DNA from: a virus
Lineage: Duplodnaviria; Heunggongvirae; Uroviricota; Caudoviricetes
IMG/VR virus record: IMGVR_UViG_3300028591_000093
Location: 16,765 to 80,764 of that record
Length of the DNA stretch: 64,000 bases
Strand: one strand, 5' to 3'
A program made the translations under genes and the position numbers. Positions 100 to 54,189 of this stretch are shown piece after piece (positions within the stretch are counted from its first letter, which is position 1; every line of letters begins with the position of its first letter). The notes beneath the pieces are model-generated. The model was not told the DNA's origin. It did not search any database and saw only the letters and a program-made list of their open reading frames with translations.

Positions 100-1722
100 T
101 CAATTCTCTTTGGGAACTTGCAACAGTAGAGCATTTCTACTAAACCACGAACTTGCTCTTCTAAACTGCTCATTTCTTTGTATCAATTGTTGTTTAGGAA
201 TTTTTCCAAATCTCTTATATCCATACTCATCTGTATACCAGCCTATCTGTTCTGTGGAAGCTTTGGGAGGTGCTTGTTGAATTGTCTTACCAATCATATC
301 TTCATTAGCAAGCATACACATACCAAAAGCTGCTACAATATCGAACTTTCTTTTGTTAGCATAAGAGTACCTAAGTAACTCATTAAGTAACTCAGGAAAT
401 TCAATATAACTACAGTAGTCTGTTATATAGTCATTGATGAGGTCTAATTGATGGTTAATAATATCATCTGTTGCAGGAGTACCATACTGATTAGGATTTG
501 CTTTCCTAATAGTAGGCATAGTAGCTCTAGGTCTTTTTAGCAATAAGTCCATGCACTTCTTTTCTTTAAAGTAAGTTACAAGACTTATCTTAGTAGCTTC
601 TATCAGTCCTTTGCAGTTATACATTCTCATCAGCTTAATAGCATTATCAAATGCAATTCTAATATCTCTAGGTCTGTCTTTATATATTGCTACAGGTTTT
701 GGCGGGTTTAACCCCATCATCCTTTTATATATAATAATACAGAATTCAGATACATCAGATTGACCTGAAGAAGTAGAAGTATCATTGTCAATAGAGTCAA
801 TACCTGCAACATACAGATTATATGGGATTTGCCCATTATCATCCTTAGTAGGTAACTCTACTATTCTAATCTTACTATGAGAATCATATTCAAACTCAGG
901 AGGAGCAAACCTATCAACTTGATGAGGGTCATTCTTCAAAGGTCTGAATCTTAAACTAATACCTTGTGGAGGGTCAATCAGTTTATGTATCTCAATATTA
1001 TTTAGTTGAGTAGAAAGAGCTTCTTTATCAAACTTGTTCTCACCTTCAAGAATAAGAGCTTCTTCAGGAGTAAAGCAGTACTCTGCTTTATACATCATTA
1101 AATCTTTAGGGGAGTTCTCCAAAAGAGCTCTTCTATCCATGTAGTACTTCTTAGCTCTTTCTTCATCAACAACTCCTCTATTATCATAGCCTATCTCACC
1201 TTTATCTTGCTCGCCAAACCACATGGTGTAAGCAGGAATAAAGTAACCAGTATAAGCTACTTCTTGCGCTTCATTATATCTATTTTTATAAGGAAGAACT
1301 TTATACTTTTTAGGCTCATAGAACATTTTGGTGAGGCCTTCGAGATTAGGGCCAGAGTCACCACCAGTTCCCCAAGCATATCTGATACCAAACTTAATAC
1401 CATTGATTTCTGTTAAAGCTTCTCCTTTAATCCATGAGGCAATAAGGTGTTTATTAGAACCTGCTTCTTCAAATAAAAGCTTGTCAGTTCTATCACCTCT
1501 GACCTTATCTGGTACATCTGCTACTTTACCTTCAATTTCTGACATCCATCCAGATTCATTTCTTTCCTCGTCTAGAACAGATGCTCTCTTAAAGTCAGCA
1601 GTATCAATTACCATTCTTTGATGGGCAAACATTCCTTTAGTCCTTGTATTAAGGAAGTTCAGTTGTGTCCATATCTTATCAAGCAACTTACTCACAAAGA
1701 AGTCATTTGGAGCAGTTGCCAT
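100..1722 (-). CDS. terL: terminase large subunit, C-terminal part (Walker B and motif III of the packaging ATPase plus RNase H-like nuclease domain)
   Basis: 540-aa ORF. DKVRGDRTDKLLFEEAGS...AWGTGGDSGP parallels T4 gp17 DAVRGNSFAMIYIDECAF...TTTPNG. LYVAGIDSIDND fits the nuclease hhhGhD Asp motif. No Walker A here; it lies in ORF 2024-2659. TGA stop. Confidence 0.6.
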   Translation of the reverse strand: MATAPNDFFVSKLLDKIWTQLNFLNTRTKGMFAHQRMVIDTADFKRASVLDEERNESGWMSEIEGKVADVPDKVRGDRTDKLLFEEAGSNKHLIASWIKGEALTEINGIKFGIRYAWGTGGDSGPNLEGLTKMFYEPKKYKVLPYKNRYNEAQEVAYTGYFIPAYTMWFGEQDKGEIGYDNRGVVDEERAKKYYMDRRALLENSPKDLMMYKAEYCFTPEEALILEGENKFDKEALSTQLNNIEIHKLIDPPQGISLRFRPLKNDPHQVDRFAPPEFEYDSHSKIRIVELPTKDDNGQIPYNLYVAGIDSIDNDTSTSSGQSDVSEFCIIIYKRMMGLNPPKPVAIYKDRPRDIRIAFDNAIKLMRMYNCKGLIEATKISLVTYFKEKKCMDLLLKRPRATMPTIRKANPNQYGTPATDDIINHQLDLINDYITDYCSYIEFPELLNELLRYSYANKRKFDIVAAFGMCMLANEDMIGKTIQQAPPKASTEQIGWYTDEYGYKRFGKIPKQQLIQRNEQFRRASSWFSRNALLLQVPKEN

Positions 1723-8506: not shown

Positions 8507-8576
8507 ACCTAGAATACCCCACTAATTAAAAAAATCTAACACTGTACTAATGTTCATCTTTGTTCTTATTTTCTAG

Positions 8577-8648
8577 AGCACCTTTCCAGAATCGAACTGA
8601 AATCATCGGGTTACAAAGCCGAGGTAATAACCATTATACTAAAAGTGC
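8577..8648 (-). tRNA. tRNA-Thr(TGT)
   Basis: Manual cloverleaf. Acceptor GCACTTT/AAGGTGC, T-loop TTCGATT, anticodon loop TTTGTAA. One C-C mismatch closes the anticodon stem. Confidence 0.65.
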
Positions 8649-8652
8649 AAAT

Positions 8653-8727
8653 GCTGGCAGTACTGGACTCGAACCAGTAATCCCCTGATTAACAGTCAGG
8701 TGCAGTAACCATTTTGCTAACTACCAG
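8653..8727 (-). tRNA. tRNA-Asn(GTT)
   Basis: Acceptor CTGGTAG/CTGCCAG, anticodon arm CCTGA-CTGTTAA-TCAGG, T-loop TTCGAGT. Confidence 0.75.
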
Positions 8728-8733
8728 TAAAAG

Positions 8734-8806
8734 TAGTCTGGGATGGAGTTGAACCACCGACCTTCATCTTATCAGGATGACAATCTAACCACTGATATAC
8801 CAGACC
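8734..8806 (-). tRNA. tRNA-Ile(GAT)
   Basis: Acceptor GGTCTGG/CCAGACT, anticodon arm TCATC-CTGATAA-GATGA, T-loop TTCAACT. Confidence 0.75.
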
Positions 8807-8812
8807 AAAAAG

Positions 8813-8886
<74 letters not shown>

Positions 8887-8893
8887 ATATAAG

Positions 8894-8967
8894 ACACACT
8901 GATGAGATTTGAACTCATGAATAGCAGTTTTGCAGACTGCCCCCTTAGACCACTTGGGTACAGTGTG
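8894..8967 (-). tRNA. tRNA-Cys(GCA)
   Basis: Acceptor CACACTG/CAGTGTG, anticodon arm GCAGT-CTGCAAA-ACTGC, T-loop TTCAAAT. Confidence 0.8.
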
Positions 8968-8971
8968 AGAG

Positions 8972-9066
8972 TGGGAAGAGAGGGACTTGAACCCCCCTAC
9001 TGCAAAGGCCAATACAACAATTTGTTAAAGCAGGTAAGTTTTACAGACTTGTGTTGTTATCTTCCC
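8972..9066 (-). tRNA. atypical 95-nt tRNA-like gene (long-arm type II or intron-containing; anticodon unresolved, possibly TAA)
   Basis: Perfect 7-bp acceptor GGGAAGA/TCTTCCC and canonical T-arm GGGGG-TTCAAGT-CCCTC. D-loop lacks GG. There are 46 nt between the D-arm and T-arm that do not fold into a standard anticodon arm. Confidence 0.4.
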
Positions 9067-9071
9067 AATTG

Positions 9072-9144
9072 TCTAGATAGAGAGGCTCGAACTCCCGCTC
9101 ACTTGCTCCCAAAGCAAGAATGTTACCCATTACACCATATCTAG
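9072..9144 (-). tRNA. tRNA-Pro(TGG)
   Basis: Acceptor CTAGATA/TATCTAG, anticodon arm CTTGC-TTTGGGA-GCAAG, T-loop TTCGAGC. Confidence 0.75.
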
Positions 9145-9149
9145 AGTTG

Positions 9150-9221
9150 TGCAGCAGAAAGGATTCAAACCCTCCACTCCTGGTTGGAGGCCAGGTATGT
9201 TGTCACTAACACCACTACTGC
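9150..9221 (-). tRNA. tRNA-Gly(TCC)
   Basis: Acceptor GCAGTAG/CTGCTGC with one GU pair, anticodon arm CCTGG-CCTCCAA-CCAGG, T-loop TTTGAAT. Confidence 0.7.
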
Positions 9222-9226
9222 ATTTG

Positions 9227-9298
9227 TGCAGATAACCAGAATCGAACTGACATTTCCAGGCTGGCAGTCTGGAGCACTAACCGTTGTGCTATATCTGC
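9227..9298 (-). tRNA. tRNA-Gly(GCC)
   Basis: Perfect acceptor GCAGATA/TATCTGC, D-arm GCAC-AACGGTTA-GTGC, anticodon loop CTGCCAG, T-loop TTCGATT. Confidence 0.65.
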
Positions 9299-9302
9299 AT
9301 TG

Positions 9303-9374
9303 TGGAATCATAGGGAATCGAACCCTAATGAATAGCTTGCAAAGCTACCATAATAACCATTATATGATGACCCC
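9303..9374 (-). tRNA. tRNA-Ala(TGC)
   Basis: Acceptor GGGGTCA/TGATTCC with GU pairs, anticodon arm GTAGC-TTTGCAA-GCTAT, T-arm TAGGG-TTCGATT-CCCTA. Confidence 0.75.
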
Positions 9375-9378
9375 AAAG

Positions 9379-9451
9379 TATCCCCATCCTGATTTGAACA
9401 GGACCCTGCACCTTGAAAGAGTGCTGACCTAACCAGCTAGTCTATGAGGAC
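9379..9451 (-). tRNA. tRNA-Glu(TTC)
   Basis: Acceptor GTCCTCA/TGGGGAT, D-arm GACT-AGCTGGTTA-GGTC, anticodon arm GCACT-CTTTCAA-GGTGC, T-loop TTCAAAT. Confidence 0.8.
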
Positions 9452-9456
9452 ATAAG

Positions 9457-9528
9457 TTGCAGGGGCAAGAATCGAACTTGCGACCGTCAGCTTATGAAAC
9501 TGCTTAGCTACCACTGCTACACCCTGCA
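9457..9528 (-). tRNA. tRNA-Met(CAT); could be initiator, elongator or Ile2-type
   Basis: Acceptor TGCAGGG/CCCTGCA, D-arm TAGC-AGTGGTA-GCTA, anticodon loop TTCATAA, T-arm GCAAG-TTCGATT-CTTGC. Confidence 0.7.
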
Positions 9529-13856: not shown

Positions 13857-13872
13857 ATATTGTATAATTTAG

Positions 13873-13959
13873 TCGCCCCTGAGGGACTCGAACCCTCACT
13901 TCTTCCAACAGAAGGACATGGTTTTAGAGACCAGCACACTACCATTATGTTAAGGGGCA
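13873..13959 (-). tRNA. suppressor tRNA, anticodon CTA (reads UAG), type II with long variable arm, discriminator A
   Basis: Acceptor TGCCCCT/AGGGGCG, D-arm ACAT-AATGGTA-GTGT, anticodon arm CTGGT-CTCTAAA-ACCAT, variable arm CTTCT-GTTGGA-AGAAG, T-arm GAGGG-TTCGAGT-CCCTC. Confidence 0.7.
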
Positions 13960-16511: not shown

Positions 16512-16837
16512 TACTTTGTGGGTTTAATAGTTATTTCTGGAAGTACATTACCAGGAATACCAATATGTTTAAGTTTACTTAATTTATTGAGTCTATCTTT
16601 ATGATAATTATAAGCTTCTGGATTCTTTTTCTTATAAAAAGAATATGCTGTTTCATTACCTAAATCAATGTTTACAAGGTCTGGTGTAATTACAGTAGAT
16701 TCTGAACCAAGAGAACTTGTAAATGTATAATTCTTATCTTTACCTGTATTTGTAAGAGATGTGATTTGATAGCTCATTTTATTAGGATTATTTGATAACC
16801 ATTGATATATAATAGAGTTTACATCATATGGTGCCAA
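16511..16837 (-). CDS. hypothetical structural protein (108 aa)
   Basis: ORF track. TAATG overlap with the downstream gene. Confidence 0.4.
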   Translation of the reverse strand: MAPYDVNSIIYQWLSNNPNKMSYQITSLTNTGKDKNYTFTSSLGSESTVITPDLVNIDLGNETAYSFYKKKNPEAYNYHKDRLNKLSKLKHIGIPGNVLPEITIKPTK

Positions 16838-21734: not shown

Positions 21735-21804
21735 AGTATATTAGCTCAGTTGGTAGAGCACTACAGAGATGTAGCGGTCGGAGGTTCAAGTCCTTCATAT
21801 ACTC
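21735..21804 (+). ncRNA. tRNA-like RNA with canonical acceptor, D- and T-arms but a truncated anticodon arm (5-bp stem, 4-nt loop); pseudo-tRNA or Y-RNA-like
   Basis: AGTATAT/ATATACT acceptor, GCTC-AGTTGGTA-GAGC, CTACA-GAGA-TGTAG, GGAGG-TTCAAGT-CCTTC. Only 70 nt long. Confidence 0.45.
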
Positions 21805-21888
21805 CTTTGGTGAGAGTGGGGTTAGACTCACAAACAAAACAGATATGTGCTCACAGAATCTATATTACTAAAAAGTATATAAACTACA

Positions 21889-34397: not shown

Positions 34398-34771
34398 GGG
34401 CCTATTTGGTTTTGACAGCATTATATGATTAATGGGAACATGCAAAGAGAGTACTGCTCTAAATTACGGTACAAAAAATAAATGCTAGCAGAAGAAGACC
34501 TGTTAGATTGGTTGCCTAAGCTTAGGCTTACTTAACTGTAAACTAGCTTATTATGGCATAACCTGGGTAATTATACCTGGAAACAGAAAATAATTGACAT
34601 TGTGGAAAGACACATTTAACTTTCTTCAAAGTATAAATGAAGTGGTGGAGTGGCTAGTTGCCAAACCAATTAGCCCCTGTGGGTAAAGTAACCACATTAA
34701 AAAGAACTAAGCATGTAAAGTTTCCTATTAGTTGATATTGTTGGACCTGGGTTCGACTCCCAGTAGGTCCA
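34398..34771 (+). ncRNA. ssrA: tmRNA (SsrA), about 374 nt. Predicted tag reading frame GCT AGC AGA AGA AGA CCT GTT AGA TTG GTT GCC TAA, giving (A)SRRRPVRLVA
   Basis: 5' GGGCCTA pairs with 3' TAGGTCC plus discriminator A next to the T-arm CTGGG-TTCGACT-CCCAG. The segment AACTAAGCATGTA matches the conserved E. coli tmRNA segment CUAAGCAUGUAG. Resume codon lies at nt 87, preceded by AAAAAATAAAT as in E. coli AAAAAAUAGUC. Confidence 0.6.
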
Positions 34772-35307
34772 CTGGTCCTTGAGGTTTTTGTTTCTCTGTT
34801 AGTTTTTCTACGATTTTTCCTAGCAGAGTTTTTGTTTTTCCTCAAGAGTAGGTCTCTCCATCCCTATATAAAAAAGATGGTATCTATATAGACATAAGTC
34901 CACAATTAAGGAGGTCATTGTAGTGATACAGAATAGGCAAAAGCTATTTGTCAGAGAGCCTTGCTCACTAGGTTAAGACAAACTACATAATAAGCTAGAA
35001 TAAAAGTATGGAGACTCAGAGCACCTAGTATGGCAGTCTATAACCATAGGTATTTATATACTTTATTTTACTGTGTTTGGGCAAACACTTGAAACGGCAT
35101 CCTAGTTTGGAGGTTTAAAAGTTAAAACCTTCTGCGAGCATAGGCATCCCTTCACTGGGAAAGTTATGCTCAACATCTGGTGTTAAGTAGCACCTAAAAT
35201 ATACTTCTTATGTGATTCAATGGTTAATATTGTGTTTTTGTTTGCGCGGTGACTCTAGGCAAGATGGGTTGTGAAACTAGTCTTGCCACCTTCTTTTTCT
35301 AAAGTTT

Positions 35308-52194: not shown

Positions 52195-52404
52195 ATGAAA
52201 ACTTTATTTGAAATTTTACCAGATTTTCTTAATGGTAAGAAAATTCGTAGAGTATCTTGGAATCAAAATCTTTGGCTTGAAACTACAGATGGTACATTAA
52301 CTAGGTTAATGATTAAAGAAGATTCTGGTATTAGACTGTTACATATAGGTGAAGGATTTTCTCTTGATGATGTTAAAGCAAAAGATTGGGAAATAGTACA
52401 ATAA
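52195..52404 (+). CDS. hypothetical protein (69 aa)
   Basis: ORF track. Confidence 0.35.
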   Translation: MKTLFEILPDFLNGKKIRRVSWNQNLWLETTDGTLTRLMIKEDSGIRLLHIGEGFSLDDVKAKDWEIVQ

Positions 52405-53012: not shown

Positions 53013-53185
53013 ATGAAACATTAAATAGTCTTATTAAGGCTGCAAGTAATTTTGGCTTAAATTATGTGTTTGTTGATAAGTATTTACTTGATAATGATAC
53101 AATTGAACACTTAAAAAGTCAGAATTATTCAATTTTAATAGGTCAAGGAACTGCTGCTAGGATAAAGATTAGCTGGTAAGTTACA

Positions 53186-53763
53186 GGGCACCTTGGCGAA
53201 ATTGGCAGACGCGCTAGACTTTATCTATAATTTGAGTGCTTATAAAGAAACTTATAGAGTAGAACCTCCCTAATTCGGTGAAGACTAAGTTAGAATAAAA
53301 AAGAAAGTGTAAGTTTTGAAGAAGATTTCACGAATCTCTGGACAATCCTGCATCCTCGCTGAGTTTTTCTTTTTCTAATATGTTAATACCGAGCCAATGT
53401 TAAAACTCAATGATAGGTCTCAATAAAATGGAAGAAGAGACTGATGATATGTCATCCTGAAAGAATTGAGATAATAGACAGTGTGTAGAGACTATACAGG
53501 AGGAACCTAAGTTAGAATTGTAAATTAGAGAACCATATGCATTCTGGGTAAACCGCTAGGTCAGTGAACATCTAATTTACATCTTGCAAGATTCTAATAA
53601 GGTTAAGATAGAGTCCAGACTACAACAAATAATTAGTTTACAGCCATGCAAAACGAGCTAGGTGAACATGCAATCGTTCTAGTTATTTGGCTATGGAAAC
53701 ATAGAGTAGTAAGAAAATCTAGTGGCCAGTGATGGCTGTGTGGGTTCAAGTCCCATAGGTGCT
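53186..53763 (+). tRNA. tRNA-Leu(TAA) interrupted by a group I intron: exon 1 53186-53220, exon 2 53713-53763
   Basis: Exons join to GGCACCT-TG-GCG-AAATTGGCAGA-CGC-G-CTAGA-CTTAAAA-TCTAG plus a 17-nt variable arm and GTGGG-TTCAAGT-CCCAT-AGGTGCT-A. The split lies between U34 and A35, the classical tRNA-Leu(UAA) intron site. Confidence 0.7.
53221..53712 (+). other. group I intron (492 nt, no ORF) in the anticodon loop of tRNA-Leu(UAA)
   Basis: Last exon-1 base is U and the intron ends in G. GGTGAAGACTAAGT (about 53278) resembles the group I R element. TAAGATAGAGTCC (about 53594) resembles the S element AAGATATAGTCC. Confidence 0.6.
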
Positions 53764-53769
53764 ACAATT

Positions 53770-54189
53770 ATGGAATTGACATTAGAACAATATCTTGAAA
53801 GAGAGAAAAGGTTTTTTGATAAGTATGATGAATATATCAGAAAACTTATAGCAATTAACAAATCAGAAAATGACAGTAATGAAGAGGAATGTGTGGAGAA
53901 GAGAAAAGCCTTAAAGAAAGAATATGAAGGTTATACTTCTATTTACCATTGTGACTTCTTTACTGAACTAACACAAAGTTATATTGATACTCATCCTGGA
54001 TGTGTCAATGCTCCTAAAATTCTAAAAGAAGTGGAGAAGAACAAGGGAAGAAAGTTTTTCTTTGGCGATAAAATCTGCACTATGACAAGAGCAATTGTTG
54101 GAACAGATGATTATTACTATGAACTTGTAGATAACAAACAAGGAAGACATTACTATACTTGTGTTGGATTTCCAACTAGAGCTGATTAA
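53770..54189 (+). CDS. hypothetical Cys-containing protein (139 aa)
   Basis: Internal ATG (MELTLEQ) of ORF 53722-54189, placed beyond the tRNA-Leu 3' end. Confidence 0.4.
   Translation: MELTLEQYLEREKRFFDKYDEYIRKLIAINKSENDSNEEECVEKRKALKKEYEGYTSIYHCDFFTELTQSYIDTHPGCVNAPKILKEVEKNKGRKFFFGDKICTMTRAIVGTDDYYYELVDNKQGRHYYTCVGFPTRAD

Follow-up and report, generated by a model that had tools for sequence, protein, structure and literature searches.

The cyanobacterial tRNA-Leu intron, written CUU/a...g/AAAA and typed as Leu.3Ug (Williams preprint), occupies a group I intron site that is given as '34/35 in tRNA-Leu' (PMC13011429). Group I introns of phages have been described in other genes. Those of T4 td, nrdB and sunY, Twort and SPO1 are mostly of subgroup IA, lie in protein genes and often come with homing endonucleases. 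A 2025 database paper (PMC11835236) assigns more than 50% of the viral group I introns to IA2, and a 2014 review located all then-known phage introns in protein-coding genes, despite the many tRNA genes that phages carry (PMC3984707). Here, we analyzed a tRNA-Leu(UAA) gene in a 64,000-nt stretch of Caudoviricetes DNA (IMG/VR record IMGVR_UViG_3300028591_000093, positions 16,765 to 80,764; the window hereafter). The gene lies at window positions 53187-53764 on the plus strand, and its halves are separated by 492 nt devoid of open reading frames (ORFs). With a probability of roughly 87%, we read it as a functional phage tRNA gene that is split between U34 and A35 by a self-splicing group I intron. 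This kind of element is known; less expected are the phage host, the ORF-less length and the large unannotated family to which the intron belongs.

The intron resembles those of cyanobacteria and plastids in its host gene, the anticodon, the interrupted phosphodiester (CUU/AAAA), the U at position -1, the omega-G and the usual lack of an ORF, but its genome is that of a huge phage, probably one of Bacteroidota. The Anabaena tRNA-Leu intron measures about 250 nt; the window intron is about twice as long. With the introns of T4, Twort and SPO1 it would share the nature of a phage-borne self-splicing ribozyme, but unlike them it sits in a tRNA anticodon loop, is ORF-less and is IC3-like. A preliminary description of the locus, made from the sequence alone, had called the insertion site known from cyanobacteria, plastids and some phages. 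The classical occurrence, in bacteria and plastids, is confirmed by the literature (Williams preprint; PMC13011429), whereas the phage occurrence is not supported, the 2014 review having placed every phage intron then known in a protein-coding gene. No description of phage tRNA introns was found in the literature searched, and further papers may exist; the genome paper of Agrobacterium phage Atu_ph07, which carries such an intron (see below), reports 33 tRNAs by tRNAscan-SE and does not mention introns.

A tRNA-Leu(UAA) gene split in the anticodon loop

When introns are allowed (option -i0,600), ARAGORN reports a tRNA-Leu(taa) at 53187-53765 with 87 mature bases and an intron length of 492. 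Its insertion string 'gactt-Intron-aaaat' places the intron between positions 34 and 35 of a type-II tRNA with anticodon taa, and exons spliced in silico return the identical cloverleaf. Exon 1 (53187-53221) supplies the acceptor 5' strand, the D arm, the 5' strand of the anticodon stem and C32, U33 and U34. The intron follows at 53222-53713, after which exon 2 (53714-53764) supplies A35, A36, A37 and A38, the 3' strand of the anticodon stem, a 17-nt variable arm, the T arm, the acceptor 3' strand and the discriminator A53764, with which it ends, CCA not being encoded. The resulting cloverleaf has an acceptor stem of 7 bp with a G1.U72 pair, a D stem of 3 bp, an anticodon stem CUAGA/UCUAG, the loop CUUAAAA (C U U / A A A A), a long variable arm, the T loop UUCAAGU and a discriminator A. 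The junction of the ligated exons is predicted from the sequence as GCGCTAGACTT/AAAATCTAGTGG (...GCGCUAGACUU/AAAAUCUAGUGG). The preliminary description had recognized the two halves 492 nt apart, their type-II fold with the loop CTT/AAAA, the final U of exon 1 (U53221) and the final G of the intron (G53713), all of which agree with the ARAGORN analysis. Its coordinates, 53186-53763, were one base off at each end.

Default ARAGORN, with 22 tRNA genes and one tmRNA listed for the window, misses this gene. The window is identical to a 169-kb ENA metagenome contig (samples ERZ27256846 and SRR10838683 contain this phage). Gene calling on that public contig leaves 540 nt unassigned here and begins the next ORF at a GTG within exon 2; identical contigs offer no sequence variation with which the gene could be tested. 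The start of that ORF (53722-54189) had earlier been called spurious, which is a reasonable judgment: its GTG lies inside exon 2, and an in-frame ATG follows at 53770, 6 nt past the tRNA end. Upstream, the tRNA gene begins 8 nt downstream of a 56-aa ORF. The intron itself contains no sense-strand ORF of 30 aa or more, and its longest ATG-ORF on either strand measures 22 aa. According to Pfam, the flanking ORFs have no endonuclease domain, the neighbors being small proteins of unknown function and an NT5C-type nucleotidase. The endonuclease ORF, encoded in or adjacent to the intron, that would mark a mobile intron is thus not present.

Among the ORFs of at least 150 aa, TTA is the commonest leucine codon (33.6%; 47.6% together with TTG), and no second leucine tRNA was found in the window by ARAGORN. 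A functional tRNA of this specificity would thus be an asset to the phage. An alternative splice register that would create the anticodon UUA, and thus an ochre suppressor, was ruled out: the 3' end of the intron would be A rather than G and the UUU:AAA P10 pairing would be broken.

Evidence for a group I intron

A local search of 53100-53850 (751 nt) with the Rfam model RF00028 (Intron_gpI) aligns the full model (1-253) to 53211-53636, across three long insertions, with 34.0 bits and an E value of 7.5e-7. On its own, this match is sub-threshold and suggestive; relatives were therefore sought. IMG/VR was scanned with motifs common to the window and the Atu_ph07 intron (GAGTGC..GTAGAA..AAWTYGGTGAAR), a pattern that is motif-biased. 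At least 120 loci were retrieved, 82 of which contain a split tRNA-Leu(taa) at this very site according to ARAGORN, with a modal intron length of 191-213 nt. At a few loci, the intron resides in tRNA-Arg(UCU), Thr(UGU), Lys(UUU) or Ser(UGA).

From these loci, 54 distinct compact tRNA-Leu introns (191-225 nt) were aligned (A1). RNAalifold recovers P2, P3, P4, P5, P6, P8 and the 3' domain from the alignment with abundant covariation. The structure drawn for it consists of P1, P2, P3, P4, P5, P6/6a, the P7 pseudoknot, P8, a P9.0-like closing helix, two 3' hairpins and P10. In this structure, 96.9% of the cells are paired, versus 33-41% after displacement of the 3' partners by 1-3 columns, and compensatory changes affect both sides of 34 of the 62 pairs. 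Covariation scores 0.403, compared with 0.134 for shuffled alignments, none of 500 shuffles reaching the observed value. GAAA tetraloops cap P2 and the last hairpin, and P8 bears a receptor motif of the CCUAAG/UAUGG type. A group I fold of this family is well supported. The P10 guide, moreover, follows exon 2 from one tRNA host to the other: UUU:AAA for Leu (79/84), UAA:UUA for Lys (3/3), UAG:CUA for Arg and UAC:GUA for Thr. This covariation directly supports P10 and indicates that the intron has been retargeted.

A covariance model built from the alignment (R1) matches the window intron in two pieces, 53216-53428 (47.5 bits, E 2.8e-12) and 53529-53717 (30.6 bits, E 2.1e-7), because the model cannot span the insertions. 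The helices were therefore mapped by hand and checked by keep-length alignment. When the 502-nt segment is added to the compact alignment and its insertions are dropped, 93 of the 98 family-invariant columns are kept, and two of the five that differ together make one compensatory G.U to C-G pair. The conserved core is found whole, with P3-P8, the P3/P7 pseudoknot, the P4-P6 stack and the P, Q, R and S elements, all backed by covariation. Both hallmarks of group I introns, the P1 wobble U53221.G53234 and the omega-G53713, are present and invariant in the 54 family members. The earlier proposal of an ORF-less group I intron of 492 nt at the 34/35 site is thereby upheld. We infer self-splicing from this conserved anatomy and covariation.

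Site and guide (P1/P10 string AAUUUGAGUGC) are the same in the compact phage introns, but the window intron belongs to a long subfamily instead. Its members were retrieved with window-specific patterns from viral contigs of up to 364 kb; they are 339-636 nt long and lie in tRNA-Leu(UAA), Lys(UUU), Ser(UGA) and Arg genes. They are characterized by a P3 of CCUCC/GGAGG, a variant J6/7 and extensions of P5, P6, P8 and P9. Two members serve for comparison below. L171, a 516-nt tRNA-Leu intron from a 171-kb contig that also matches other parts of the window, is 81% identical over P1-P6 including the P5 extension, and L170 has the P8 extension in common with the window (85%).

Anatomy of the intron core

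P1 (53218-53237) joins the exon bases A53218, C53219, U53220 and U53221 to the guide GAGU (53234-53237), with U53221.G53234 as wobble; it is read from the sequence, is invariant in 54 of 54 family members and is paired in 36 of 36 cases in the long subfamily. Directly upstream, UUU (53231-53233) is the P10 guide that pairs with A53714-A53716 of exon 2 and aligns the 3' splice site. P2 (53240-53257) is a hairpin of 6 bp plus an A.C closing pair around a GAAA loop (53247-53250). It is supported by the R1 alignment, by covariation of all seven pairs in the family and by four compensatory changes relative to L171. The 5' strand of P3, CCUCC (53265-53269), pairs with GGAGG (53499-53503) in the family and subfamily alignments, next to C53270.A53498, which is non-canonical throughout the subfamily. 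P4 is formed by UUCGGU (53274-53279), the classical P element AAUUCGGUGAAG, and ACCGAG (53388-53393), the Q element; it is family-invariant, with six of six pairs present in the window.

P5 (53283-53384) comprises 53283-85 paired with 53382-84, an 11-nt-receptor-like motif ACUAAG/UAUGU and a 96-nt extension (53286-53381), as seen in the sequence, the constrained fold and compensatory changes relative to L171. For P6 (53394-53483), the local RF00028 match, the constrained fold and the subfamily comparison agree on C53394-G53483, on C53395.U53482, non-canonical across the subfamily, and on an extension of about 85 nt (53396-53480). Family invariance and covariation define the R element GTGTAGAGACTATACAGG (53482-53499), which runs through J6/7, the P7 5' strand (G53488, the bulged A53489 and G53490 A C U A53494), J7/3 and the first two bases of the P3 3' strand. 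The S element TAAGATAGAGTCC (53604-53616) consists of J8/7 (AAGAUA) and the P7 3' strand GAGUCC (53611-53616) and is placed by the RF00028 and R1 alignments and by family invariants. The preliminary description had pointed to an R-like and an S-like string. Both strings exist and the second is the S element, but the first, GTGAAGACTAAGT at 53278-53290, represents the end of the P4 5' strand, J4/5 and P5. In P7, 53488 and 53490-94 pair with 53611-16 (GC, GC, AU, CG, UA and AG); within the family, each P7 pair either is invariant or covaries, with A-U replaced by U-A in 13 of 54 members. By analogy with G264-C311 of Tetrahymena, G53490-C53615 is the predicted guanosine-binding pair.

P8 (53504-53604) pairs 53504-07 with 53601-04, followed by the receptor motif CCUAAG/UAAGG and an inner helix (53512-18 with 53591-97), according to the sequence and the folds. 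Its extension (53508-53600) holds an 11-bp helix (53519-29 with 53571-81), found in the folds and backed by compensatory changes relative to L170, and a conserved palindrome AUCUUGCAAGAU (53581-92). The 3' 40 nt of P8 are about 92% conserved across the long subfamily. The palindrome is a perfect one of 12 nt, and its surroundings show that same conservation of about 92%. A kissing contact between it (CUUGCAAG) and the UGCAA motifs of the P9 extension (53647, 53668) was considered but not adopted: it is plausible in the window and in L171, but the partner is absent in L170.

The 3' domain (53619-53710) is closed by a P9.0-like helix ACUAC/GUAGU (53619-23 with 53706-10), for which the R1 alignment of 53529-53717, a family covariation of CCAC/GUGG to CUAC/GUAG and the unconstrained fold agree. 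Within it lie an extended P9 (53624-53690) with an 11-bp helix (53626-36 with 53679-89; constrained and unconstrained folds) and a hairpin (53691-53704) with a GAAA loop at 53696-99, supported by R1 and by two compensatory changes relative to L170. The last intron base, directly before the 3' splice site, is the omega-G (53713), a G in 54 of 54 family members.

The Azoarcus intron has the helix set P2-P9 and P9.0 (PMC13168695). Like the Azoarcus pre-tRNA-Ile intron and other small IC3 introns, the window intron has P2-P9 and P9.0, lacks P2.1 and P5abc, bears GAAA loops on P2 and P9 and has CCUAAG/UAUGG-type receptors in P8 and P5; on this anatomy, it is IC3-like. It differs from Azoarcus in its host tRNA and anticodon-loop position, its four extensions (about 290 nt), its A+U-rich core and its three non-canonical pairs. 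The core strings AAUUCGG.GAA, CCGAGCCAAG, GUGUAGAGACUA and AAG.UAUAGUCC presumably match the Azoarcus ribozyme, which we take as a lead only. The GAAA tetraloops of P2 and of the 3'-terminal hairpin probably dock into the receptor motifs of P8 and P5, which are of the 11-nt type.

Origin of the extra length

The window intron exceeds its relatives of about 200 nt by about 290 nt. The preliminary description had placed one large insertion between the R and S elements; instead, the extra length is distributed over four helix extensions, in P5, P6, P8 and P9. The extensions were derived from a constrained fold, and the P8 and P9 domains are also recovered by an unconstrained fold. Matches to the window through the P8 extension include L084 (about 75%) and the tRNA-Lys introns L115 and L182 (about 77%). 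The P5 and the P8 extension start with the same 12 nt, CTAAGTTAGAAT, present as a direct repeat at 53285-53296 and 53507-53518, and the return strands carry TTCTAATA(T/A)G. From this repeat, the tetraloop-receptor module looks to have been duplicated.

The alternative that best survives concerns these extensions only. They may be tolerated secondary insertions, mobile hairpins or eroded homing-endonuclease genes in the loops of P5, P6, P8 and P9, rather than ribozyme periphery. In its favor, the extensions differ almost wholly between close relatives: that of P5 is common to L171 only, and that of P8 is matched only by L170, L084, L115 and L182. In addition, their sites are terminal loops, the usual place of ORFs in group I introns, and the same 12-nt repeat begins two of them. 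Nonetheless, repeated mobile elements are disfavored, as the 64-kb window holds no further copy of any extension, and so are eroded endonuclease genes, given that the window intron has no ORF above 22 aa and no long relative has a sense-strand ORF. All subfamily members are long. The extensions, moreover, form perfect 11-bp helices, and pairing is kept by compensatory changes wherever a homologue exists. Relative to L171, A-U is replaced by G-C in P5 (53284/53383) and in its extension (53320/53370); relative to L170, the P8 extension helix shows G-C to A-U (53520/53580) and G-C to C-G (53528/53572). We regard secondary insertion as an unlikely, though not negligible, explanation.

Is the split gene functional?

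Several features weigh against a functional tRNA gene with a self-splicing intron. RF00028 yields no match in the window at its gathering score (50 bits), nor when the whole window is scanned by E value. The core is rich in A+U and has a non-canonical pair in each of P3, P6 and P7; in P2, the loop-closing pair is A.C; and the P8 receptor reads UAAGG rather than UAUGG. The minimum free energy of the intron is ordinary for its composition (z = -1.23; 13 of 100 shuffles are as stable). Finally, each extension is common to one or two relatives only, and the extension structures are thinly supported. The shortfall of RF00028 (34.0 versus 50 bits) is attributed to the four large insertions and to the 3' domain, which lies outside the model. 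The preliminary description had proposed Infernal with RF00028 as a check and the lack of a hit as a ground for rejection. The check fails at the gathering score and succeeds in the local search, so that this ground, literally applied, would wrongly reject a true intron.

Dependence on proteins in vivo is common among group I introns, and a genuine group I intron that depends on a phage or host cofactor, such as a chaperone or a maturase-like protein, would fit the low G+C content (32-36% in the pieces matched by R1), the 4-bp P1, the non-canonical core pairs and the unremarkable fold stability. On the other hand, no maturase or endonuclease ORF lies within or beside the intron, and the tetraloop and receptor motifs, the usual basis of self-sufficiency in small bacterial tRNA introns, are present. 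We consider such dependence unlikely; it would change the requirement for a helper, not the identity of the element.

A decaying relic, group I-derived, that has lost splicing and left a tRNA-Leu pseudogene carried passively would explain the low RF00028 score, the non-canonical pairs of the core, the A.C pair of P2, the large insertions in four helices and the modest z value. Yet, the same P3 C.A, P6 C.U and P7 A.G pairs recur across nine distinct long-subfamily sequences, in different phages and different tRNA genes, and are therefore lineage traits rather than signs of decay. The compensatory changes relative to L171 and L170 in P2, P5, the P5 and P8 extensions and the 3' hairpin equally argue for maintained pairing. 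With nearly all invariant positions kept, exons that form an intact cloverleaf and a tRNA that decodes the commonest leucine codon, loss of function appears very improbable.

Chance proximity of two tRNA-like halves, or a tRNA intron of the protein-spliced, bulge-helix-bulge type, for which the silence of the default tRNA and Rfam scans might speak, can practically be dismissed in view of the RF00028 and R1 E values, the 93/98 invariant columns, the family covariation, at least 82 homologous split tRNA-Leu genes with the same junction and an insertion at 34/35 instead of 37/38, the canonical site of protein-spliced tRNA introns.

Distribution of the family in phages and cells

Among deposited phage genomes, a BLAST search with the window tRNA and intron retrieved only Atu_ph07, as a 5' fragment. 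This phage (L001; MF403008, about 112,890-113,250) contains an unannotated tRNA-Leu(UAA) gene with a 278-nt intron at the 34/35 site (RF00028, 48.9 bits). A coding sequence annotated as 'hypothetical protein' (AUZ94936) overlaps the 3' end of that intron and exon 2. Full copies in deposited phage genomes are found in Atu_ph07 and, again unannotated, in a 735-kb uncultured phage (LR756501/LR756503); other deposited phages have core-only matches, one of them beneath a capsid protein gene. Applied to 185,579 cellular species genomes, the same motif pattern gives 47 hits, most of them in tRNA-Leu(CAA) genes of Bdellovibrionota, with some in beta- and alphaproteobacteria, Bacteroidota or contigs of metagenome-assembled genomes that are possibly phage. 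In the metagenome-assembled genomes of Bdellovibrionota (L125, L131, L133, L140, L142 and others), the intron measures 250-280 nt, and its tRNA-Leu(CAA) host means that a C34 tRNA is split at the same site. No cyanobacterial genome is among the 47 hits, which makes a close sequence relationship between the window intron and the cyanobacterial introns unlikely. The family lives mainly in phage tRNA genes.

In single huge-phage contigs, related long introns can interrupt two or three different tRNA genes (Leu UAA, Lys UUU, Ser UGA). Such cases are L169/L170 (IMGVR_UViG_3300037400_003188), L115/L180, L182/L184 and L173/L179, and the P10 guide fits each 3' exon.

Proposed mechanism and implications

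The gene would be transcribed within a run of small plus-strand genes, upon which the intron would fold, the guide GAGU (53234-37) pairing with A31, C32, U33 and U34 of the exon to form P1 and the U53221.G53234 wobble setting the 5' splice site. A free guanosine, held at G53490-C53615 in P7, would attack after U53221. Pairing of UUU (53231-33) with A35-A37 of exon 2 would then form P10, omega-G53713 would take the place of the free guanosine in the binding site, and the 3'-OH of U34 would attack after G53713. Exon ligation would release an 86-nt type-II tRNA-Leu, to be trimmed and provided with CCA by cellular or phage enzymes, and this tRNA would decode UUA and UUG, the most used leucine codons of the phage. 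The non-coding extensions of P5, P6, P8 and P9 (about 290 nt) would probably act as peripheral scaffolding.

Default ARAGORN and the Rfam gathering score both miss this gene, and phage tRNA inventories and codon-supply analyses will therefore undercount such genes. The tRNA intron family contradicts the widely cited view that phage introns occur only in protein-coding genes (PMC3984707). A farther-reaching hypothesis is that phage tRNA genes are a major overlooked home of group I introns, which are kept because they help the phage. It would fit the enrichment in phages (at least 120 viral loci versus 47 hits in the cellular species genomes, with a motif-biased pattern) and the expansion of the family into tRNAs for Leu, Lys, Arg, Ser and Thr by retargeting of the P10 guide, with up to three intron-bearing tRNA genes per contig, but we give it little credence as a whole. 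One possible benefit is that the anticodon loop stays hidden or inert until GTP-dependent splicing, which may evade host anticodon nucleases or time the supply of the tRNA; a lineage-specific expanded periphery could also provide regulation. Since the family is present in the cultivable Atu_ph07, splicing is directly testable. The long variants without ORFs, in which exchangeable peripheral domains are attached to an unchanging core of about 200 nt, represent a natural series in which the evolution of ribozyme periphery can be followed.

Genomic context

The window has a G+C content of 33.8%. A second group I intron is found on the minus strand at 1826-2054 (RF00028, 35.2 bits, E 3e-7; R1, 37.3 bits), where it splits the large-terminase gene, a conventional setting for a phage intron. 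The flanking terminase ORFs lie at 2024-2356 and 100-1722 (minus strand); the C-terminal one shares 30-44% identity with the terminases of crAss-like phages and other phages of Bacteroidota. Terminase genes (terL) split by group I introns have been reported for 'Jug' phages (PMC12880540). The window phage resembles them in its intron-split terminase gene. A close relationship to Lak phages was ruled out, since a 17-kb megablast gave only a tRNA-sized match to them.

Judged by its ORF translation alone, one gene in the window is GroEL-like. A 69-aa ORF at 52195-52404 (plus strand) has a sub-threshold match to the Tad2-like domain of Thoeris anti-defence (PF11195, 22.2 bits versus a cut-off of 25). 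The 22 tRNA genes of default ARAGORN include a cluster of ten at 8576-9528 (minus strand). A tRNA-like gene at 21735-21805 (plus strand; RF00005, 53.4 bits) is given a two-base anticodon 'ag' by ARAGORN, and its anticodon loop may be unusual. An 88-nt tRNA at 13872-13959 (minus strand) with anticodon CUA, labeled 'Pyl' by ARAGORN, is likely an amber suppressor and raises the possibility of TAG recoding; TAG ends only three of the 43 ORFs of at least 150 aa in the window. The tmRNA (34398-34774, plus strand; RF00023, 93.2 bits) encodes the tag peptide ASRRRPVRLVA.

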